Assembly: GCF_036507355.1 (NCBI RefSeq)
Contig: NZ_AP027877.1
Origin: Escherichia coli
GTDB taxonomy: Bacteria; Pseudomonadota; Gammaproteobacteria; Enterobacterales; Enterobacteriaceae
Reading direction: 5' to 3' (one strand)
DNA: 64,000 nt
A program made the translations under genes and the position numbers. Below are positions 2,458 through 14,975 of the stretch, in pieces; position 1 is the stretch's first letter, and each line of letters begins with the position of its first letter. The notes under the pieces were generated by a model. The model did not search any database. It saw only the letters and a list, made by a program, of their open reading frames with translations, and was not told the origin of the DNA.

Positions 2458-3161
2458 TGGATTTGCCCCTATATTTCCAGACACCTGTTATCACTTAACC
2501 CATTACTGGCCCGCTGCCGCAGATATTCCCGTGGCGAGCGATAACCCAGCGCACTATGCGGATGCCATTCGTTATAATGCTCGAACGCCTCTGCAAGGTT
2601 CTTTGCTGCCGTTAACCCGTCTGGTTTGGGCATGATACTTATGTAGTCACGCTTTATCGTTTTCACGAAGCTCTCTGCTATTCCGTTACTCTCCGGACTC
2701 CGCACTGCCGTGTTCTTCGGTTCAAGTCCCAACATCCTGGCGAACTGACGTGTTTCATTCGCCCGGTAGCATGAACCATTATCCGTCAGCCACTCCACTG
2801 GAGACGCCGGAAGCTCGCTGCCAAAGCGGCGTTCCACTGCTCCCAGCATGACGTCCTGTACTGTTTCACTGTCGAAGCCACCCGTTGTGACCCCCCAGTG
2901 CAGTGCCTCACGGTCACAGCAGTCCAACGCGAACGTGACCCGCAGTTTTTCTCCGTTATCACAGCGGAACTCAAACCCGTCAGAGCACCATCGCTGATTA
3001 CTTTCTTTCACAGCCACTCTGCCGGTATGTGCCCGTTTCGATGGCGGTACAGCGGGTTTTCGCTCAAGCAACAGCGCATTCTGGCGCATGATCCGGTAAA
3101 CACGTTTGGCATTGATCGCAGGCATACCATCAAGTTCTGTTTGTCTGCGAAGCAGCGCCCA
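2458..3161 (-). mobile_element. IS2 remnant: right inverted repeat plus 3' part of orfB (IS3-family transposase), 5' portion deleted
   Basis: ORF 2469-3125 matches the IS2 OrfB C-terminal region as I remember it (...[36 protein letters not shown]...[12 protein letters not shown]); terminus TGGATTTGCCCCTATATTTCCAGACA at 2458. Similarity stops abruptly near 3161. Confidence 0.8.
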
Positions 3162-3636
3162 TAACGCAGCCCTTGCCTTACTGGTGTTTCTGGCCCTGAC
3201 CGGATTACGCCTTGGTGAAACCCGTTATCTTCTGCTTGAGGATATCGACTGGTCCCGTCAGACCATCACTTTGCGAGAAACTAAAAACGGTAAGCTTCGC
3301 TGTGTGCCAGTGGGTGATAAGGCCTTTGTTCTTCTGACTGAGCAGCGCCAGCACTTGGGCGATAAAGGCTGGGTTTTCCCCGGCTATAACACAACTAATC
3401 CGGTTGCAGAACCACGCCGTCTGCAAAAGCGTATATGTGAGAAAGCCGGTATTTCACCATTCACTATTCATGAGATGCGACACACTTTCGCCACGAAACT
3501 TATCGAGAGTGGGGCTGACATCCATACCATCAAAGATTTACTGGGCCACAGCACCATAAAGGTTACCGAGAGGTACCTACATGGCAGCCCGGTGCGCTAC
3601 CACGAGGCCATTAACAAGGCGATGGATACGTTCTAG
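3160..3636 (+). pseudogene. Tyrosine recombinase (phage-type integrase) C-terminal catalytic fragment, N-terminus missing
   Basis: ORF 3106-3636 carries integrase catalytic motifs (HEMRHTFAT, LLGHSTIKVTERYLH) but only ~160 aa; directly abuts the truncated IS2 segment. Confidence 0.7.
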
Positions 3637-3717: not shown

Positions 3718-5643
3718 ATGAATAACATAGTGACACCCGCCCCCTTAACGACAATGGCGCGTTTTGCCTGTTCGAAACTGAATGGATTTCTGGCTCGTCG
3801 GGCTTTGCATCAGGCAAATGCGAAGAAAATCCTTAAAAAGGCAATTGCAATCAGCATTGCGGTCGATGAGATTTCGGCAAAAGGGGGGCGTGATGGTCTG
3901 CCTGATGGGTTTGTTAACTCACCGCATGGGCTTTTTTATGATGATGGCAAAAAAGTGTTTCAGCTCAGTTCTACTGCTATTGTTCCCGTCAGCAGGCATT
4001 ATTCAGCGTGTAAGAAGCGCAATATGGGTGTCGAACTCATGACCATTAATCATGCGGGTCAGTATGTCTGCGCTGAAATTTCACTGAGCAACGTTACGCT
4101 AAACCCCGATAGTGTGATTGGCTCCCTGACAGCGCAAGGTTTCGGTATCCCTATGACGGTAAAGACGAAAGAGCTGTTGGCGCAGTTCTTACAGACATGT
4201 ATGAAGCAAGCGCTGGCTCTCCCTACCTACCTTGTCGCTGATTCAATGGGATTTGTACCCGGCAAGAAAGCGTTCTTACATGGCAATATGCCTTTAGCAC
4301 AGAACATCCCTGGGTTTGATTACCTTATTTCCGTTCAGCGTACACCCGCAGGGATCGTTGAGTCCGGCACGCTGGATGCGTGGAAGGCTCTGGTGAAAAA
4401 GAATGTCCATGGATGGCCACAGATTTTTGCATTGTGTTCTGCCTTTGCGTCCATGCTGGTTGCATTGTGTAAAATGGATGTGGCGATGTTTCACTTCTAT
4501 GGTGGGTCAACGACTGGAAAAACGATCCTTCTCCAGCTTGCGATGTCAGTTCATGGTCATGGCGGGGAGCCGGGAAGTGGAAAGCTTGTCAATGTTCTTC
4601 GCTGGAATACCACGGTGAATGCGCTAGAGAAGCGACTGAGTCAGTTCTCAGGCCTGCTGGCATGTGTGGATGAGTTGGGGGCTTATAAACAAAAGGACTT
4701 CGCTTCGCTCCTGTACAACATTACCGCCGGTCAGGGTAAAAGCAGAATGGACAAGAATCTGGATATACGTGAGCTTTATACATGGGAAATGTTAATTCTC
4801 TCCGCAGGTGAAATGTCCATTTCTGAGAAGCTAGCGACGGAAAAAGAACATCTTCAGGGTGGACAGGAACATCGCGCCATTAGCCTCAATGTTTTGCCTG
4901 AAGATGCCCGTAAAGACGGCGAATCATCAGAAAGGGTACGCTGCCGCGCTGATAGTCTGAAAAATGGCCTGAGTGAAGTTTATGGTACGGCGGGTAAGGA
5001 ATTTATTGCTAATTTGCTGGCACTGGATAATGACGATGATGAACCGCAGTCCTGGGATGAAATGTGCCTGTCTATTCAGGGGGCAGTAGAAGAACAACGT
5101 GACAGTCTTGTCGGTGAGCTGCAGGAAGAAGGTTATGCACTTAGTGACATTCAGCTGCGTGCATTAAAACGATTTTCCCTATGTTTGTGTGCCGGAATCC
5201 TGGCAGCATCATGGAATATCCTTCCGTTCAGTGAAGATATTATTAAGGGTGCGGTAATGAGCGCGGCTCGTCGCTGGCTGGATGATAAACCAAACCAGTA
5301 TAGCCCACTAAAGCAGGTGCTTACGGCTATCCAGCACGATCTTCTCACAACCAGAGCGTCCCATTTAATGCCGTTGCTTGATGAGGATGCGCATACCCCA
5401 TACAACCACTGGGGGTACACGGATAAGAACGATAACATGATGATTTTCGCTCCTGTTTTTGAAGGCTGGTGTGCCAAAAAAGGCATTAAACCTGCTGATG
5501 TGGCGAAAGCATTGGCAAAAAAAAATCACCTCAAACCAGAAAGTCAGGGCCACTACAAAAAACGTCCTCAGAAGGGAGTTCAGCAACCTTTTTATCTGGT
5601 TATGAATACATTTCTTGGCTGTAACATTGGCGCTGACTTTTAA
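3718..5643 (+). CDS. DUF927-like protein with P-loop NTPase (primase/helicase-like replication protein of integrative elements)
   Basis: 641-aa ORF with Walker A GGSTTGKT and Walker B-like CVDELG; architecture recalled from P4-like/integrative-element replication proteins. Confidence 0.55.
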   Translation: MNNIVTPAPLTTMARFACSKLNGFLARRALHQANAKKILKKAIAISIAVDEISAKGGRDGLPDGFVNSPHGLFYDDGKKVFQLSSTAIVPVSRHYSACKKRNMGVELMTINHAGQYVCAEISLSNVTLNPDSVIGSLTAQGFGIPMTVKTKELLAQFLQTCMKQALALPTYLVADSMGFVPGKKAFLHGNMPLAQNIPGFDYLISVQRTPAGIVESGTLDAWKALVKKNVHGWPQIFALCSAFASMLVALCKMDVAMFHFYGGSTTGKTILLQLAMSVHGHGGEPGSGKLVNVLRWNTTVNALEKRLSQFSGLLACVDELGAYKQKDFASLLYNITAGQGKSRMDKNLDIRELYTWEMLILSAGEMSISEKLATEKEHLQGGQEHRAISLNVLPEDARKDGESSERVRCRADSLKNGLSEVYGTAGKEFIANLLALDNDDDEPQSWDEMCLSIQGAVEEQRDSLVGELQEEGYALSDIQLRALKRFSLCLCAGILAASWNILPFSEDIIKGAVMSAARRWLDDKPNQYSPLKQVLTAIQHDLLTTRASHLMPLLDEDAHTPYNHWGYTDKNDNMMIFAPVFEGWCAKKGIKPADVAKALAKKNHLKPESQGHYKKRPQKGVQQPFYLVMNTFLGCNIGADF

Positions 5644-6365: not shown

Positions 6366-7553
6366 CTACAACGTATCGGGTAACTGAGCGCGGATACGTT
6401 CCGCCAGTAACTGACTGGTGTTCTGTAAGCGCTGAGGATGAAGATGTGCATAACGCTGTGAAGACTGACTGCTACGGTGCCCCAGTTGAGCCTGAACGTC
6501 ATATAGCGTACCGCCGTAGGACACGATGAGGGCGGCAACCGAATGGCGGCAGGTATGGATACACACTTCCTTGTCGAAAATTCCCGCCCGACGCACGATA
6601 CGCTGAAAGGCTTTAACCGGGTTACTCAGCGGCATTCCCTGTTTTTTACCAATAAACAACCACGGATTTCCCCGCTGCGTTGGCAGCGTTCTGATTACGT
6701 CCATCGCCAGTGAGTTAAGGTGAACAATCCGTCCATAGCCATTCTTGGTTTCAGGGAGCCACAGGGTGCGTTTAACCGGGTCAACATGCTCCCACTTTGC
6801 CAGACGCAGCTCATCGCGGCGAAGGCCGGTCAATAACAGCAGTTTGACATAGCGGGCAGCTACAGGGCTGGTATCGTTATCGGCGGAGAGAAAAATACGA
6901 CGAATTTCGTCCTCGGTAAAATAACGCTGTCGGGCGTTGTTCTCCCTGAGTAGCTGTACCACCCTTGCCGGATGAACAGAGGTCATGCTTTGCCTTCCGG
7001 CCCATGTAAAGACGGCTTTAATGAGTACGATGACACGGTTACAGGTAGCCGCTGACAGGGAAGTACTTAACGTCTGCTGAAGGCGCAGAATGCTCGCTGG
7101 TGTGATATCGCTCAGCAGCCTCTGACCAATGGCGGGACGGATATGATCGCGGTAGCGCTGAACATCCTTTCCCCAACTGCGTTTAGCGGATTTTGCCCAT
7201 GGCAGATAATGCTGATTAAAGAGTTCATCGAACGTCAGCTCCATTCTCTTGTTTTCACGCTCCTGCTTAGGGTCAGTGCCGGTGGCAAGGGAACGTTTGT
7301 GTTCTATGGCAATCTGACGGGCAAGATTGACGTCCACTTCAGGCCAGTGACCAATGGCGATGGCGCGTTTTCGTCCATGATAGAGGTAGCGGAGCAAAAA
7401 CTTTTTACGACCTTCTTTTCTGCTGACCAGACACTTGAGGCCGGAAATCTCGGTGTCGCTGTATTCGGCATCGGTGCTGCGTGCATCTGATGTGTTAGGG
7501 GGCAGTGATTTAATGAGCTGATTAGTAAAACGGAAGCGTTTGGGAGTGGACAT
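6366..7553 (-). CDS. int: P4-type tyrosine integrase
   Basis: 395-aa ORF with arm-binding-like N-terminus and catalytic R..HxxR..Y region (HTCRHSVAALIV, LGHRSSQSSQRYAHL); lies 7.3 kb from tRNA-Phe and is transcribed away from it. Confidence 0.85.
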   Translation of the reverse strand: MSTPKRFRFTNQLIKSLPPNTSDARSTDAEYSDTEISGLKCLVSRKEGRKKFLLRYLYHGRKRAIAIGHWPEVDVNLARQIAIEHKRSLATGTDPKQERENKRMELTFDELFNQHYLPWAKSAKRSWGKDVQRYRDHIRPAIGQRLLSDITPASILRLQQTLSTSLSAATCNRVIVLIKAVFTWAGRQSMTSVHPARVVQLLRENNARQRYFTEDEIRRIFLSADNDTSPVAARYVKLLLLTGLRRDELRLAKWEHVDPVKRTLWLPETKNGYGRIVHLNSLAMDVIRTLPTQRGNPWLFIGKKQGMPLSNPVKAFQRIVRRAGIFDKEVCIHTCRHSVAALIVSYGGTLYDVQAQLGHRSSQSSQRYAHLHPQRLQNTSQLLAERIRAQLPDTL

Positions 7554-7985
7554 ATAACCTCCTGTGACTGGTGTAAAGAACGTCAGGGTTGACCCATCCC
7601 CGGCACGGCGTTGTTAATGGCTAAGTTGATTTTCTGGCATGGCGAAGGGAATGCTGGTGCCACATGGTATGAATTAAGACGGGAAATGCAGAAAGAGCAG
7701 GCTTTACGGTCTGATTCTGGTCTTAAGGGAAAAGATTGCCGTTGGGGAAGAGTTCACAGAAATAATATGTGTTTCAGTCTAGAACAATTACATGCCATGA
7801 GGATCAAGAGAGTTGCCCGTATATGGCAGGTATCAAAGTTGGTTATGGATGTTGCCAAAACATAGTGGGGATGGATGTTGAAGTGCTAACTTGATGTTTT
7901 TAATGGGAAAGTGTAAATTGCGTGATGCGTTGCACTCATGTAGATAACACCATTGAAAGTATCAAATTGTTTGAAAAAAAATCAT

Positions 7986-8056
7986 CTTTGATCAACCTTA
8001 AGATTGTTTCTAGATGGTAAAATCTTCATATGGGAAAGAGCTCACTGGTAAGGAAG
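7986..8056 (+). promoter_or_regulatory. Putative promoter and RBS for the four-gene operon
   Basis: AT-rich divergent intergenic region; TTGATC ... TGGTAAAAT (extended -10-like) and AGGAAG 10 nt before the ATG at 8067. By eye only. Confidence 0.25.
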
Positions 8057-8066
8057 ACAAATCCTG

Positions 8067-9119
8067 ATGGGGATCATCGTACGAATTCTTAAAGCTAACC
8101 ATGGCGATTGCATTTTGGTGAGCCATGAAAGCGGTTCAGGCACTCTCAACTTGCTCATTGATGGGGGACCTGCGACGACATTCAGGTATGGCATTAGGCA
8201 GCGCTATTCTGGAGCATTGAGTAACGCTCTCGATGATCTGAAAGGAAAGGGGCAAAACATTGATCTGGCTATCCTGACCCACATTGATGATGATCACATA
8301 AATGGTTTTATCAAGGCATTCGAAAGTCCAAACTATCTGCGTCAGCTGGTTAAATCGATCTGGTTCAATTCTTCGAGGTTAATCACACATCATTTTAATG
8401 TGCCTGAAATTTGTGAAAATAATATTTTCTTGCAGGAAGTTTCCCCTGAAACTAGCGTTAAACAGGGGCAAGAACTTGAGGCATTACTTGATGAAATCGG
8501 ATGTGTGCGAGCACCGCTCATTATGGCAGGGCAAATCTACAAAGTAGGCCCGATTACTTTAACAGCACTTTCACCTGAACGAAGACAACTCGAACAGCTT
8601 TTGCATAAGTGGCCAACGGAAGTAAGTTCAGCTGACACTTCTTCATATGAGAATGATTATCACCGTTCATTGGACGAAATTTGGGCAGATGATAGATTTG
8701 AATCTGACTCATCTATTTATAATGGAAGCTCAATTGCATTTTTACTGGAAACAGATGACAAAAAAATGCTTTTTTTAGGAGACGCCAATGACCAAGTTGT
8801 TACAAAAAATTTAAGAGCATTGGGCTATAGCGAAACAAACAAGTTGAAGCTGGATCTGGTTAAAGTTTCGCATCATGGTAGTCAATACAACACAAGCAAC
8901 GAATTTCTTTCAATACTAGATTCTCCATGCTTTGTTATTTCAACCAATGGTTCGAAGCATGGTCTTCCTAATAAAAGGACTATTGCAAGGATCTTAAAGG
9001 AAACAGATGGTGATATTTATTTTAATTACAGCAATGTAATTACTCCGCTGCTTTTAGCGCATGAAGCTGAGAGCTATTCTTCTCGTCTAAAAGTGCTAGG
9101 TGATGAGATTAAATTCTAA
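8067..9119 (+). CDS. Metallo-beta-lactamase-fold hydrolase (putative nuclease)
   Basis: 350-aa ORF with MBL motifs in canonical order: LIDGG, THIDDDH (8278-8298), FLGDAN, VSHHGS. Confidence 0.7.
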   Translation: MGIIVRILKANHGDCILVSHESGSGTLNLLIDGGPATTFRYGIRQRYSGALSNALDDLKGKGQNIDLAILTHIDDDHINGFIKAFESPNYLRQLVKSIWFNSSRLITHHFNVPEICENNIFLQEVSPETSVKQGQELEALLDEIGCVRAPLIMAGQIYKVGPITLTALSPERRQLEQLLHKWPTEVSSADTSSYENDYHRSLDEIWADDRFESDSSIYNGSSIAFLLETDDKKMLFLGDANDQVVTKNLRALGYSETNKLKLDLVKVSHHGSQYNTSNEFLSILDSPCFVISTNGSKHGLPNKRTIARILKETDGDIYFNYSNVITPLLLAHEAESYSSRLKVLGDEIKF

Positions 9120-10419
9120 CATGACAGTTTACGAAATAATGCAGTCCCACTGCGTCATGGTTAATGGTGGCAGTGGTGTGCTAGTTAATGCAATGACACT
9201 GGATTACACATATGTACTGACTGCATACCATGTTATTCGTGACACTCTCGATAATATCGAAGTTACCGATCACAGTGGCAATAAACTTACAGTATTAGCT
9301 GTGCTCCTATATCCAGATATTAAATATTTGAACGAATCCCATAATGATTTCGCAATTTTAAAAATTGAATATCAACCAGAAGTTGCACAAAGTTGTTTTA
9401 CTGCTTCGACGTTGCCTCCTCGTGCTGAGCTTACATTAGTAGGATTTCCAAACACTGAAAGAAGGAGTTCGGATCCTATAAAATATTATGATGGACATAT
9501 GACTAGCGTGGTCGATGAGCTTGTCATTTTCACTGTTGATGGTGTACCAGGCTTAGCCACGATAAAGGGGATGTCAGGTGGAGGTGTATATCACATAGTT
9601 GGTAGAAATACATTTCTTGTTGGTGTTGAGTTTAGGATGGATGGCACTGAAGAGGAACAACAGTTTGGCCGAGTGCAATGCCATAGCTTAGCAAAGTTTG
9701 ATGAAATAATAAGAGCATACGATAGCGCACCGATGATTCCTGCCCATTTGGAATGCTTTTCTCGAATACAAGACAAAATATTTAAATTTAATGTTATTGA
9801 TCAAAACAATGTTCGTAATCTTAAAGATGCGTTAGAAGCCCTTTCCAGATCACTTATAGCTAGTGGGATGTCTCCGCCTTACAAAATCATGGGGCAATAT
9901 GGATTACAGCTTTTGATGGATCCCAAAACTCCTAATGAGCTCAGTAATAAAGAGTTATGGATTTCTTATTTTGAATTTTTAGTTATTTGCTCTGTGATAG
10001 ATAATGTTGGAATTGTGGATGATGCATATATAAAAAGCTTGGAGCGAAAGCGGCGGCTATTATATACCAGTAATGGTGCGAACTGGATTAGCCATTTGGA
10101 AGAACTACTCAAAACGGCACGAAAACTTTTAGATAAGGATGGCACTTTAATCGTTGCATCACCTGATGCTGCTGCAAGTGTCTTGCCTCCGAACTTTCGA
10201 CTTAAAAACGTAATAAGTAATATAGCGGTAGTGCCAAACCAGGGGCCGTTTGCTATCGATGAAGTTGAAAGTTCTATTTATACAAGCTTCAAATTAACTC
10301 ATCTGGAGGGACTCCGCAAAAGCTGCGTAATAGACCGTGAGGATGAATATCTAGTAGTTCCAGCAGGTGTACCACAATTGCAGTTATTTAAGGAGAAGCT
10401 TAATGAAATTATTAAGTAA
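9100..10419 (+). CDS. Trypsin-like serine protease domain fused to a ~250-aa C-terminal domain of unknown function
   Basis: His (LTAYHVI), Asp (NDFAILK), Ser (GMSGGGVY) in S1 order in the first ~170 aa. Start ambiguous (GTG 9100, ATG 9103 or ATG 9121); overlaps or abuts the upstream stop. Confidence 0.7.
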   Translation: MMRLNSNMTVYEIMQSHCVMVNGGSGVLVNAMTLDYTYVLTAYHVIRDTLDNIEVTDHSGNKLTVLAVLLYPDIKYLNESHNDFAILKIEYQPEVAQSCFTASTLPPRAELTLVGFPNTERRSSDPIKYYDGHMTSVVDELVIFTVDGVPGLATIKGMSGGGVYHIVGRNTFLVGVEFRMDGTEEEQQFGRVQCHSLAKFDEIIRAYDSAPMIPAHLECFSRIQDKIFKFNVIDQNNVRNLKDALEALSRSLIASGMSPPYKIMGQYGLQLLMDPKTPNELSNKELWISYFEFLVICSVIDNVGIVDDAYIKSLERKRRLLYTSNGANWISHLEELLKTARKLLDKDGTLIVASPDAAASVLPPNFRLKNVISNIAVVPNQGPFAIDEVESSIYTSFKLTHLEGLRKSCVIDREDEYLVVPAGVPQLQLFKEKLNEIIK

Positions 10420-10942
10420 GGAAGTCGATCTGAGTATTTTAAGTGTGAAATATGATAAAATCAGATTTCACATGTATTGCTCAGATGATCCACTTTCATT
10501 TATTTCCTGTATAGTATGTGTATGTGAGACTTCAGCCGATATTTTGGAGAATTGGCGTACTATTCAAAATGTGGTTTCTGTTCACTATCAACCATCGGGT
10601 GACTTAGCATCTTGGAATATGTATATTGTTTTTTTTACAACTGATGTTTTTCCTGTATGGGAAAAATATGAAATAGAAAACAATAAGTTTGCTGCTCGCA
10701 AGATAATTATTGATAAATTCTCAGGTGCCCCCACCTCTGCTCAGTTAGTTACTGAGTTGCAAAAATATTTGTTGGGAACAGACTTAAGACTTGATCCGCG
10801 AGTCAATGAGTCAAAAGAGGCTTTATTGTCTTTAGATAAATACGTTCGTGGTGCTCCATTAGATTCAAAGAATGAGTCCAGAGAAATCCGCGCCTCCATG
10901 GTCAATGAAATAATTAAATTTTTGAACAAAAATGAAAATTAA
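10403..10942 (+). CDS. Small protein of unknown function (possible adaptor component)
   Basis: 179-aa ORF from ATG 10403 with AGGAG upstream; overlaps previous gene end by 17 nt and next gene start by 11 nt. Confidence 0.55.
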   Translation: MKLLSKEVDLSILSVKYDKIRFHMYCSDDPLSFISCIVCVCETSADILENWRTIQNVVSVHYQPSGDLASWNMYIVFFTTDVFPVWEKYEIENNKFAARKIIIDKFSGAPTSAQLVTELQKYLLGTDLRLDPRVNESKEALLSLDKYVRGAPLDSKNESREIRASMVNEIIKFLNKNEN

Positions 10943-13900
10943 AAAAGTTGAGATTGAAGCATTTCGTGCCTACAAATCTAGGTCAGATGGCACGTTTGAT
11001 TTCACGAATGATGGAGATGTTGCTGCAAATTTTGTTGCGATCTATGCTCCGAATGGTTTTGGTAAAAGCTCCTTCTACGATGCTGTTGAATGGGCAATTA
11101 CCAATCACATGGCAAGACTTGGCGGAGAATATAATAAAGCTAATTATGAGAACGCTGCCAAAATCACCAAGGACGATAATGTTGGGCAAGAAATTTTACG
11201 TAATAAATATGTAGATAAAAATATACGCACAAAGGTAGTGGTATCAACCACTCGACCACTCCCTTTTGAGCGTAAACTACCCAAAGTCAGATCTAATGGG
11301 CGTGATTTGCGATTCGGAGATAATAGTCAAAGAGAAAATGATTTTTTCCGACAAGTGATTCTAAGTCAAGATGAAATTGATAGATTTCTCCGAGAAGCCA
11401 AACCGCAAGAGCGCTATACGAAATTTATGGAAAGTTTCGGTGGAGATATTGAAATTGCCCGTAAAGAGCTGTCAGTACTTATAAATGATAATAAGATTGA
11501 GTTGAATAATCTCAATAAAAAGAGAGAATCTATTCTTGAACAATTAAAACAACCAATAGATTCTTCAATTTTCCAAAAATTCAATTCTATTGCTGTTGAA
11601 TTGAATAAGTTGGGTGAAAATATTCAATTACCTGACGAGAGTTTTTCATCTCAAGATGAATATGCTCTTAATGTTAGTCTTATATCGCGACGCCATGAAC
11701 TCGACTCATCACGTTTAACGAACAATCGAACGGTAGAAGCACTGGAAGACAGGCTTCTAAAAATATCTGAAACTGAATTACATGTCCGCAGTTTAGCAGA
11801 ACAGAATTTACATCTTGCTAAATTAGTGAAAGGAGTGGCCGACGCTGATAGGTACCAATCACTTTTGGATTCATACGAAAAATGTGCAGAAGATCAGAAA
11901 ACCACACACATGCATATGACTCGTATTATAGAAGTGATTGATTGCCTTGATGATTTTCTAAAAATTGAGTCTCATCTTCTTGAGTTGTCTACTAGCCAAA
12001 AGATAATTTCTGAAGAACGCACCAAGATCTGTGCGCAGCTTGCAGGTTTTGAAACAACAATTAATCAATTGAATAAGGAGCTTAAGGCTGTAGATGATAG
12101 GGTCGCTATACTTAGGAAGACCGTTGATAACGCCGGGCAAGTATATTTGGAGCTCGCAAATAACCGGGCTCGGGTAAGTAACCTAACACAGCAAATATCA
12201 AAAAAAGAAGTTTCTATTAAGATAGATAAATCTAGGCTTGGGGAGTTGAATCGTGAGTTGACTAGACTTTCTGAACTCAATATTAATGCCACCTCATTAT
12301 CAAACGGAAATCTAGGGACCTTACTTTTAGAACCTACGAAAGTTGAGCAGCTGACGAGATGTTACGCCGAGTTTGATGTGATTGAATCACAAATTCAAGC
12401 TGTGCATGTTACTCAAAAAGCATTATCTGAACAGATGGAATTGCATGAACGACTGATTGCCATTGGAATTGACTATCTTAGTGTACGACCATCCAGTATC
12501 TGTCCTTTATGTACAGCTCCTCACCCATCTGCGGACGGTTTACTGGATAAAATTAAAGGGCGGAACCTTTTATCAGAATTAAGTGAGGAGAATTCTAAAC
12601 AGCTTTTATTTTTCTCTACACGTCAGAAAGAAATTCTTCAATCAATTCAGGATATTACTCAGTGCGCAATTGATTCAAAGGCTCAGTTGATTATTAACTT
12701 AAACAAGGAATTGAGTGAGACTGACGAGAGACTTACTCTTGCAGGTAGAGATATATATTCAATAGAAGCAGAGTTAAAGACTCTTGAGAAACGGACCACA
12801 GAGTTAGAAAGTTTAGTTTGGGCACTTTCACATGATGAACTGGTATCCCGAATTGAAAAAGAAATTGGTGAGCTTTCAATCAAAAGTTCAAAGCTCCTAG
12901 AAGGAAAAGCATTAATTACCCCTCAGGTTGAAATGCTTAATGAATCACTCAAAGAAAAAGACTCTGCGCAGCAAAAAATAGCTTCGGAGTTGGAAGGTAT
13001 CTTTAGCGGAAATATCTACATTACAGTTTATAAATACTTAAATGAAAATGCGATTTCGTCTTCATCCCTCAAAAGTCATACTGAAAAAAGGAAACTAGAG
13101 ATTGAGGCTGAAATAATTAAGTGTAAAACCACTATTGAGTTTTTGACTGAACAATGTGCTGTTTTACAGCAAAAAATGTTAAGTGATGGTATGTGGGTGG
13201 ATTTTGTTCAGTTGAAGCTGCAAAAAGAATCTTTAGAAATAAGTGTTGCCCGCTCTCAATCAGTAATTAACACGTTTTATGAGAGTTTATCTAACCTTAT
13301 AATTATCCGTCCTGAGTACAGTCTTGAAAAAGTCAAAGAGCTCATAGCTGCGAAAGTTCAGGATTGCCATCTTCGTACGAAAGAATTTGATAGGCTCTCA
13401 AATAATATTAATTTACTCATAGAACTTATGAGTTCGTTTAAGCCATATATTAAACATACAGCTCTTCAGAAAGATTTAATGGCTGAAGAGATGTTAATAA
13501 AACAGCGTGAACGGGTCGACACTACTTTAACCGCAGAAAGAGATGCAATAGTGGATAGCCTGAAACTTCTTATCAATAATTTCTTCTATGAAGATCTTAT
13601 TAATTCTATTTATAAGAAGATAGATCCGCATCCTGCCTTTAAAAAAGTAGAGTTTAAGGCTGACTTTGATTCTGATAAGCCAGGCCTAAATATTGTGGTT
13701 AGTGATGAGGTTGGAGAGCAAATCTCGCCAATACTTTATTTCAGTGCGGCTCAAACGAATATTCTAAGCTTAAGTGTCTTTTTAGCTAGTGCACTTCATG
13801 CGAAAGACGATGAGGGTAATCCCATCAATGTTGTTATGATTGATGACCCAATTCAGTCAATGGATTCGATTAATATACTCTCTACGATAGATCTTTTAAG

Positions 13901-14063
13901 AAGTATATGTGTTCAATTTGATAAACAAATTATTATTTCAACGCATGATGAAAACTTCTTTGCCTTACTCCAGCGCAAAATCCCTGCCCAAATTTTTGGA
14001 TCTAAATTCTTGCAATTGGAAAAGTTTGGTGTAGTCGTCCCGGTGCAACCCTTTGTGAACTAA
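10932..14063 (+). CDS. SbcC/Rad50-like ABC ATPase with long coiled coil and central CxxC zinc hook
   Basis: 1043 aa: Walker A NGFGKSS (Lys codon 11064-11066), Q-loop ILSQDE, CPLC at 12501-12512 (residues 524-527, mid-protein), signature-like FSAAQ, Walker B VVMIDDP, H-loop STHDE. The middle ~600 aa are heptad-rich and Leu/Glu/Lys-rich. Confidence 0.8.
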   Translation: MKIKKVEIEAFRAYKSRSDGTFDFTNDGDVAANFVAIYAPNGFGKSSFYDAVEWAITNHMARLGGEYNKANYENAAKITKDDNVGQEILRNKYVDKNIRTKVVVSTTRPLPFERKLPKVRSNGRDLRFGDNSQRENDFFRQVILSQDEIDRFLREAKPQERYTKFMESFGGDIEIARKELSVLINDNKIELNNLNKKRESILEQLKQPIDSSIFQKFNSIAVELNKLGENIQLPDESFSSQDEYALNVSLISRRHELDSSRLTNNRTVEALEDRLLKISETELHVRSLAEQNLHLAKLVKGVADADRYQSLLDSYEKCAEDQKTTHMHMTRIIEVIDCLDDFLKIESHLLELSTSQKIISEERTKICAQLAGFETTINQLNKELKAVDDRVAILRKTVDNAGQVYLELANNRARVSNLTQQISKKEVSIKIDKSRLGELNRELTRLSELNINATSLSNGNLGTLLLEPTKVEQLTRCYAEFDVIESQIQAVHVTQKALSEQMELHERLIAIGIDYLSVRPSSICPLCTAPHPSADGLLDKIKGRNLLSELSEENSKQLLFFSTRQKEILQSIQDITQCAIDSKAQLIINLNKELSETDERLTLAGRDIYSIEAELKTLEKRTTELESLVWALSHDELVSRIEKEIGELSIKSSKLLEGKALITPQVEMLNESLKEKDSAQQKIASELEGIFSGNIYITVYKYLNENAISSSSLKSHTEKRKLEIEAEIIKCKTTIEFLTEQCAVLQQKMLSDGMWVDFVQLKLQKESLEISVARSQSVINTFYESLSNLIIIRPEYSLEKVKELIAAKVQDCHLRTKEFDRLSNNINLLIELMSSFKPYIKHTALQKDLMAEEMLIKQRERVDTTLTAERDAIVDSLKLLINNFFYEDLINSIYKKIDPHPAFKKVEFKADFDSDKPGLNIVVSDEVGEQISPILYFSAAQTNILSLSVFLASALHAKDDEGNPINVVMIDDPIQSMDSINILSTIDLLRSICVQFDKQIIISTHDENFFALLQRKIPAQIFGSKFLQLEKFGVVVPVQPFVN

Positions 14064-14559
14064 AGTGCTTGCACTGCCTCTAAACAATCTGCATGCACAT
14101 CTCGTTGACTAAATTTGAAACGAGATGTGCATTGCTCGTTATAAAAATAAGGCATGTTCTAATTATCCAATCCCCATCAGTATAAGTGGGTGGATAGATA
14201 TATTTGGCCCCTTTAACAGATATGTTAATTTCCACTTTTCGCTTACAGTGGACCTGCAGCTCAGTAACTTACTCACTTTGTGCTAGGAACGGGCATTGCT
14301 AATAGTCAGAGTGTATGACCTGCTCATCGTTGATTAAGGACAGCGCTGTACTGGTTCGTTGAACCCACGGCTCACAACGGACACTCAGGTTATTATTCCA
14401 ATACGTTTAGCTCAAGTAGTATTACTACGGATAAATCATTTTATGATGGCGTGGAGAACGGGGGGATTCTGAAAATGGTAAGAAGTGAAAGGGCAAGAAG
14501 AGCTTGTTGCAGGTGGACGGACTGGTGAAGATTCCCATCTGGAGGGTGTATGCTGCCAA

Positions 14560-14730
14560 GTTTCCCCGCTTGCTATTGGGGATTTCCCCACCTTATTCCC
14601 CGCGACAAAATCATGTTAAGACCAGCGGATTAAGGAGAAATGATAATTCCCCCGTTTTCCCCGTATTTTCTACTTCATTATGAATGATCTGAGAGAAAGG
14701 AACCGTAGAGGACCGTAGAAAGACCGTAGC
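14560..14730. repeat. Clustered short direct repeats (five TTCCCC motifs at 14561-14663; three ACCGTAG repeats at 14702-14729, ~10-11 bp phasing)
   Basis: Read directly from the sequence in the 840-bp non-coding stretch between the operon and tRNA-Phe. Confidence 0.4.
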
Positions 14731-14899
14731 AGTGAGGTTAGGAAAAGGTACATCAGAGGATGTTGAGGTGTCTAAAAGTAACGAACATCTGCGAAAATGG
14801 CGAGAAATCCAGCAAACAAATAACGTGTTGCAACGACCAGAAATCTACCGTAGCCAAGAAAGGAAAAAGCCCCGCTTTGCAGCGAGGCCTTATGAATAT

Positions 14900-14975
14900 T
14901 GGTGCCCGGACTCGGAATCGAACCAAGGACACGGGGATTTTCAATCCCCTGCTCTACCGACTGAGCTATCCGGGC
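14900..14975 (-). tRNA. pheV: tRNA-Phe (GAA anticodon)
   Basis: Reverse complement reads GCCCGGATAGCTCAGTCGGTAGAGCAGGGGATTGAAAATCCCCGTGTCCTTGGTTCGATTCCGAGTCCGGGCACCA, the E. coli tRNA-Phe as I remember it; position next to yqgA-speC indicates pheV. Confidence 0.95.

Follow-up and report, generated by a model that had tools for sequence, protein, structure and literature searches.

A stretch of 64,000 nucleotides of the Escherichia coli chromosome (assembly GCF_036507355.1, contig NZ_AP027877.1; called the window here), which carries yqgA, speC, nupG, mltC and mutY among its genes, contains an operon (8067-14063, plus strand) whose four genes are closely spaced and in part overlap. The last of them, lmuB, is an open reading frame (ORF) with an ATG start and no internal stop, which encodes 1043 amino acids (aa). 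It is preceded by the genes for a hydrolase with the metallo-beta-lactamase (MBL) fold, for a trypsin-like protease that is joined to a C-terminal docking domain (CTD), and for the small protein LmuC (Table 1). We are highly confident that LmuB serves as sensor in a long Lamassu system against phages and plasmids, which is complete, belongs to the Hydrolase-Protease subtype, i. e. is an ABC-three component (ABC-3C) system, and is located on a low-GC island at pheV. The system as such is already known: it has been published, is found by standard tools and is no new kind of system.

LmuB matched its PADLOC model over the full length (E=0, 1036.6 bits; the model has 1007 positions). LmuC was recognized by PADLOC (PDLC03873, 3.5e-50) and as Pfam MComp1 (PF20289, 2.3e-8), and is named "ABC-three component system middle component 1" in RefSeq; when it was compared with the PDB by sequence, nothing meaningful matched. 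The overlaps of its gene are 17 nt with the protease gene and 11 nt with lmuB. The MBL protein matched the PADLOC models LmuA PDLC03854 (2.2e-128), RTasMBL (7.7e-64) and Avs1a (8.8e-48), Pfam Lactamase_B (5.9e-5) and NCBIfam Avs1a (1.4e-59), the last with 201.8 bits and thus below the cut-off of 420. The effector LmuA matched PADLOC PDLC03855 (1.6e-142) and consists of Trypsin_2 (1.7e-8, residues 24-168) and CTD4 (PF20280, 1.3e-59, residues 194-411, ~217 aa); its protease triad is H44/D83/S159, numbered from the GTG at 9100, and the protease domain also matches PADLOC RT_UG9_large. Identical operons in three E. coli genomes carry the RefSeq label of ABC-three component system proteins.

The start of lmuA chosen in RefSeq, GTG 9178 (413 aa), looks too far downstream: homologues have about 20 further N-terminal residues, which overlap or abut the MBL stop, and the PADLOC alignment of LmuA begins at residue 8 of the ORF starting at 9100. 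As judged from the sequence, the true start of lmuA is likely ATG 9121, 1 nt past the MBL stop codon. Scans for promoter and terminator consensus sequences gave no enrichment over shuffles. A perfect 13-bp inverted repeat (ATGCACATCTCGT, 14 nt, ACGAGATGTGCAT) starts 30 nt past the lmuB stop; it was not called by the terminator scan, as its loop is long and a T run is absent. This repeat may act in transcription or stability, or may be a site related to the island.

Table 1. Genes of the operon, motifs and arms of LmuB, and features of the island. Positions refer to the window, except in the last row, where they refer to the homologous loci named.
Feature	Position	Strand	Description
Gene 1, MBL-fold hydrolase	8067-9119	+	350 aa; motifs H72-x-D-x-D-H77 and S268-H-H-G (268-271)
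Gene 2, LmuA effector	9100 or 9121-10419	+	N-terminal trypsin-like serine protease and C-terminal ABC-3C docking domain CTD4
Gene 3, LmuC	10403-10942	+	179 aa; ABC-3C middle component 1
Gene 4, LmuB, long type	10932-14063	+	1043 aa; Rad50/SbcC-like coiled-coil ABC ATPase
Walker A NGFGKSS	11052-11072	+	Residues 41-47; N41, G42, G44, K45 invariant in 142 sequences
Q-loop ILSQDE	11358-11375	+	Residues 143-148; L144, Q146 invariant
N-terminal coiled-coil arm	11403-12485	+	Residues 158-518; breaks 206-211, 227-239, 448-467 (AlphaFold2)
Zinc-hook motif CPLC	12501-12512	+	Residues 524-527, within the non-helical apex loop 519-533
C-terminal coiled-coil arm	12531-13622	+	Residues 534-897; breaks 629-633, 706-709, 752-757, 788-797
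ABC signature-like FSAAQ	13740-13754	+	Residues 937-941; S938, Q941 invariant
Walker B VVMIDDP	13830-13850	+	Residues 967-973, followed by D-loop QSMD; D971, D972, P973, D978 invariant
H-loop STHDE	13938-13952	+	Residues 1003-1007; T1004, H1005 invariant
P4-like tyrosine integrase	6366-7553	-	
tRNA-Phe (pheV)	14900-14975	-	
Inverted repeat	14093-14132		13 bp
Segment differing from strain YZ22MPE54	2458-3160		
Transposase fragment	2469-3125	-	ORF, IS type, rve-like sequence
Remnant of second tyrosine integrase	3106-3636		176-aa C-terminal part
DUF927 protein	3718-5643	+	641 aa
Toxin-antitoxin/recombinase flanks of homologues	L002 6810-7326; L007 8179-8650; L003 1-526, 10564-14636; L006 1174-1836		

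The positions of the LmuB motifs were set by script on the translation. The original prediction had described a 1043-aa ATPase with the full Rad50/SbcC motif set and a mid-protein CPLC zinc hook. All motifs were found where it had placed them, and the hook does lie at the midpoint of the chain (1043/2 = 521.5). Its VVMIDDP is present as well, yet it went unremarked that this Walker B ends in D-D in place of the canonical D-E. The coiled-coil-like region, given as ~600 residues, is indeed helical but spans about 740 residues in the AlphaFold2 model. CPLC is the sole CxxC of LmuB, which has 11 cysteines in all; by chance ~0.12 CxxC would be expected.

To judge conservation, 1.84 billion cluster representatives were scanned with HMMER. 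Among the 2548 relatives obtained, the best 150 were examined; 141 of them were full length, each representing a cluster at 50% identity, and together with the query they formed an alignment of 142 sequences. Every one of the 141 carries a mid-protein CxxC. C524, P525 and C527 are invariant (CPLC in 128 sequences, CPVC in 11, CPIC in 2 and CPTC in 1), and likewise K45, Q146, S938, Q941, D971, D972, D978 and H1005, while the coiled-coil columns flanking the hook are nearly unconstrained.

The AlphaFold2 model of LmuB (72-sequence alignment; mean predicted local distance difference test score, pLDDT, 82.1) consists of two long helical arms joined by a non-helical loop of 15 residues, which holds the cysteines. 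A first run with a 23-sequence alignment, in which the heads had a pLDDT of 30-50 and Foldseek gave matches with very low TM scores, was superseded. In accordance with the arms of the model, hydrophobic periodicity of 3.5 residues exceeded the 95% null in 26% of the windows of the N-terminal arm and 24% of those of the C-terminal arm, but in 0-2% of those in the heads. Covariation between the arms (mutual information after average product correction, G-INS-i alignment) peaked on the antidiagonal i+j = 1047-1057, which indicates an antiparallel hairpin centred at about residue 525. The closest structural matches of the head were Rad50 and SbcC. Thus, in the predicted structure, an invariant CPxC hook crowns a fold-back helical hairpin on a Rad50/SbcC-like head. 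The original prediction had staked itself on an antiparallel coiled coil with a hook and on a cysteine pair conserved in homologues; both are what the model and the alignment contain.

These features, together with the neighbouring genes, agree with the published description of Lamassu. LmuB is an ABC ATPase of the SMC/Rad50 kind, with a coiled coil that divides its head, lmuC lies directly upstream of its gene, and LmuA combines an N-terminal effector with a family-specific C-terminal docking domain. Lamassu systems fall into a short and a long clade; LmuB proteins of the long clade have a Walker B of the type hhhhDD and consistently a single CxxC, and long Lamassu carry hydrolase-protease effectors (Haudiquet et al., PMC12663957). 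The E. coli protein has VVMIDD and exactly one CxxC. With 1043 aa it also has the long coiled coil of this clade (LmuB of ~800 aa or more), accompanied by the longer LmuC and LmuA CTD (179 and ~217 aa). The Hydrolase-Protease subtype is indicated by the separate MBL gene directly upstream of the protease-fused gene, with the motifs of both intact. A CPxCG-like hook has been noted in the ABC-3C/Lamassu family since its first description (review PMC10586767).

The same arrangement of MBL, trypsin-CTD4, MComp1 and a LmuB of ~1045 aa was found in every one of the six distant loci whose upstream sequence reaches far enough; LmuB is there about 25-34% identical to the E. coli protein. A seventh locus on a truncated contig retains CTD4, MComp1 and LmuB. 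The protease triad and the MBL metal motifs are invariant across the seven loci.

How such a system could work is suggested by its relatives. In short Lamassu, cryo-EM and genetics have shown that DNA ends are sensed and that the effector is released (PMC12663957), and in one such system defence requires the zinc hook of LmuB, the binding of ATP and engagement of the heads (Li et al., 10.1101/2025.03.14.643221). In other Lamassu systems, one of the Hydrolase-Protease subtype among them, phage or plasmid defence has been shown to rest on the ATPase of LmuB and on the active sites of the effectors (PMC12663957, citing its ref. 20; 10.1101/2022.05.11.491447). Activation has also been linked to hairpin-forming palindromes (Robins et al., PMC11707656). 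In Hachiman and AVAST, the partner protease switches on the MBL protein, a gated pro-DNase, by site-specific cleavage, and this model has been explicitly extended to Lamassu (PMC12799240; 10.1101/2025.09.03.673762). By analogy, two LmuB chains would dimerise via a zinc ion held by both CPLC motifs, and the dimer together with LmuC would keep LmuA inactive. The ATP-bound heads could then clamp DNA ends or abnormal replication or recombination intermediates of a phage or plasmid, upon which LmuA would be released or oligomerise. Its trypsin-like domain would cut the gating loops of the MBL pro-nuclease, and the nuclease, once cut, would degrade DNA indiscriminately and so abort the infection. 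The Asp in place of Glu in the Walker B motif probably slows ATP hydrolysis and thereby gives a long-lived DNA-engaged state. The proposal of the original prediction, that a hook-bearing Rad50-like ATPase has been repurposed for sensing of DNA ends or foreign DNA in conflict, thus gains support: it corresponds to the reported role of LmuB, which is placed next to SbcC in published phylogenies, and both the PADLOC match and the Rad50/SbcC-like head point to this role.

An alternative, which we consider unlikely, is that the sensor is that of a long Lamassu but the effectors follow another logic: the protease itself could kill by cleaving host or phage proteins, and the MBL protein could act independently or on a substrate other than DNA. 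Activation of the MBL protein by the protease exists for Lamassu as a model only, and the NCBIfam Avs1a score below the cut-off means that the E. coli MBL protein does not count as an equivalog of the proteins that were tested. Yet the MBL gene lies directly upstream of the protease gene in each of the six distant loci, and the pair also occurs with STAND and reverse-transcriptase sensors, as seen from the PADLOC matches to Avs1a/RTasMBL and RT_UG9_large. The two proteins co-evolve and act as pro-nuclease and activator in two unrelated systems (PMC12799240; 10.1101/2025.09.03.673762). Moreover, the MBL protein has variable Ser/Thr-rich loops at ~125-134 (…VSPETSVKQG…) and ~183-222 (…EVSSADTSSYENDY…DSSIYNGSS…), which is where the Hachiman-associated MBL pro-nuclease is cleaved (S128/S129 and S191/S192; 10.1101/2025.09.03.673762). 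The match in position is suggestive only and makes them candidate gating loops.

Another possibility concerns the hook. CPLC could have a structural role or bind a partner (LmuA or LmuC, for example, might dock there), and the chains could dimerise elsewhere; this we regard as distinctly improbable. Some short LmuB clades function after loss of the CxxC (PMC12663957), and the hook region is in contact with LmuA and LmuC in the structure from Salmonella, where zinc density was not discernible (10.1101/2025.03.14.643221). But hook mutants lose defence in a short Lamassu (10.1101/2025.03.14.643221), and long LmuB proteins always retain one copy of the motif (PMC12663957). The invariance of the motif in all 141 clusters and its place at the very tip of the hairpin, which corresponds to that in Rad50 and SbcC, likewise favour a zinc hook.

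It is very improbable that the gene is a housekeeping paralogue of SbcC or Rad50 which serves DNA repair and not defence. E. coli SbcC has about 1048 aa, which is close to the 1043 aa of LmuB; Rad50 and SbcC are the best structural matches, and some databases use the labels "DNA repair protein" or "exonuclease SbcC". An antiparallel coiled coil with a CxxC at its apex, as in our model, is a hallmark of Rad50/SbcC. What is missing is the Mre11/SbcD phosphoesterase partner, and for this reason LmuB, which works like Rad50, is not classed as Rad50/SbcC. The original prediction, which viewed the protein without its partners, had already stated that there is no Mre11. This is literally true, as the upstream genes encode MBL, trypsin-CTD4 and MComp1, but the protein is no orphan: the effector genes lie directly upstream in the four-gene operon, and the partners are ABC-3C components. 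The D-D ending of Walker B also speaks against a repair enzyme, as does the distribution of the operon: among 5426 complete E. coli genomes, only 3 carry it. Proteins that are almost identical are present in Citrobacter, E. fergusonii, Serratia, Pectobacterium and Pantoea, which indicates horizontal spread.

The location of the operon, too, is at odds with a housekeeping function. Its GC content is 37.5% compared with about 51% of the host, and it has the 3' end of tRNA-Phe (pheV) on one side and a P4-like tyrosine integrase gene on the other. Hence it is cargo of an integrative island at pheV, in which attachment site and integrase gene (6366-14975) enclose the defence genes. Nowhere else in the window was a second copy of the tRNA-Phe 3' end (att repeat) found, so that the far end of the island must lie upstream of position 1. 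Homologous operons have ParE/RelB-type toxin-antitoxin pairs, resolvases and integrases at their flanks, which fits cargo of mobile defence islands.

A loop-extruding SMC of the Wadjet/MukBEF type can practically be dismissed: gene sizes (439, 191 and 1043 aa) and order superficially resemble JetA-JetB-JetC, and the full-length Foldseek matches of the shallow first AlphaFold2 model include JetC and MukB, but PADLOC matched no Jet models, Pfam also ruled out this assignment, and the hinge and kleisin/KITE signature of this type is lacking, the arms being joined by a 15-residue loop without a hinge in the model.

Some points weigh against the identification as a long Lamassu sensor and the mechanism derived from it. 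No structure has been solved for any long Lamassu. By sequence, the only PDB match of LmuB was Rad50 of T. maritima with a marginal E of 9e-4, and a profile of close homologues matched only unrelated coiled-coil proteins; sequence comparison thus detects no LmuB of the long type with a solved structure. The covariation between the arms is modest, with z ~3 among 559 antidiagonals compared with 2.4 for the best parallel diagonal. Published long LmuB proteins average about 800 aa (PMC12663957). The clade found here has 1043 +/- 12 aa, and geometry from other Lamassu may therefore not transfer to it. Activation of the MBL protein by the protease has been demonstrated only in Hachiman and AVAST. 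For E. coli LmuB itself, zinc binding, dimerisation and DNA-end sensing are properties that we infer from its relatives.

Among the known systems, the one closest to the E. coli operon is the long Lamassu of the Hydrolase-Protease subtype, called Lamassu-Hydrolase_Protease in DefenseFinder and PADLOC, with the system of B. cereus B4077 as the example that is experimentally validated for defence (PMC12663957; 10.1101/2022.05.11.491447). Both have four components in the same order, a hhhhDD Walker B, a single CxxC hook, a trypsin-like LmuA with CTD, a separate MBL hydrolase and a mobile or defence-island context. Nothing qualitative differs; E. coli LmuB is at the upper end of the size range, and the E. 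coli system is known here from its sequence. With the short Lamassu (V. cholerae DdmABC and Salmonella enterica LmuACB; PDB 9hqu, 9hqx, 9uxl) it has in common a Rad50-like LmuB, LmuC and a LmuA with docking CTD. DNA-end sensing, effector release by oligomerisation and, where a hook is present, the need for it would by inference be shared as well. SbcCD and Mre11-Rad50 differ in their nuclease, for which the E. coli operon has no counterpart, and in the Walker B Glu, which is Asp in LmuB. They process ends for repair, whereas Lamassu activates a toxic effector and so leads to abortive infection. The MBL gene directly upstream of a protease fusion is a feature of other trypsin-MBL modules (AVAST type 1, Hachiman-MBL, DRT/UG9), whose models are those hit by the E. 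coli MBL protein (Avs1a/RTasMBL) and protease (RT_UG9_large). In contrast to these modules, the E. coli protease is tied via CTD4 to an SMC-like complex and not to a STAND NTPase, a helicase or a reverse transcriptase.

Beyond the integrase gene, the window differs from strain YZ22MPE54 (L001 1505-4094): about 2.6 kb are swapped for about 0.7 kb with an insertion sequence (IS) type transposase fragment. The stretch missing relative to YZ22MPE54 comprises the gene of a 398-aa hypothetical protein and, of a second tyrosine integrase, the N-terminal two-thirds; the C-terminal remnant of this integrase is left. The adjacent DUF927 protein weakly resembles the SCCmec Cch1 replicative helicase family, with a match (6e-21) that stays far below the cut-off. 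This match suggests a satellite-like or replicative integrative element as neighbour, and the two tandem integrase genes suggest that two elements are stacked at pheV.

The length of LmuB deserves attention. Total length varies by only +/- 12 residues across the 141 clusters at 25-64% identity, although the coiled coil is nearly unconserved. This hints at selection on the length of the arms, which may be functionally calibrated. We tentatively raise the possibility, without considering it the probable case, that the ~1043-aa LmuB proteins are a distinct "SbcC-length" form of Lamassu with calibrated arms, in which coupling to the effector differs from the "sequester and tetramerise" mode of short Lamassu. 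An example of a different coupling could be head-proximal docking inherited from SbcD, as suggested by AlphaFold3 models in PMC12663957; the same study reports that long LmuC structurally resembles the C-terminal domain of SbcD.

In practical terms, the labels "AAA family ATPase", "DNA repair protein" and "exonuclease SbcC", where they are attached to members of the LmuB family, should be read as Lamassu sensor. The locus is a clean and, in E. coli, rare example of the least-studied branch of Lamassu. By analogy with its relatives, it would pair a zinc-hook sensor of SbcC length with a two-enzyme effector made of a protease and a pro-nuclease. It thus offers a convenient model in the native host for how a Rad50-like clamp turns on a protease.

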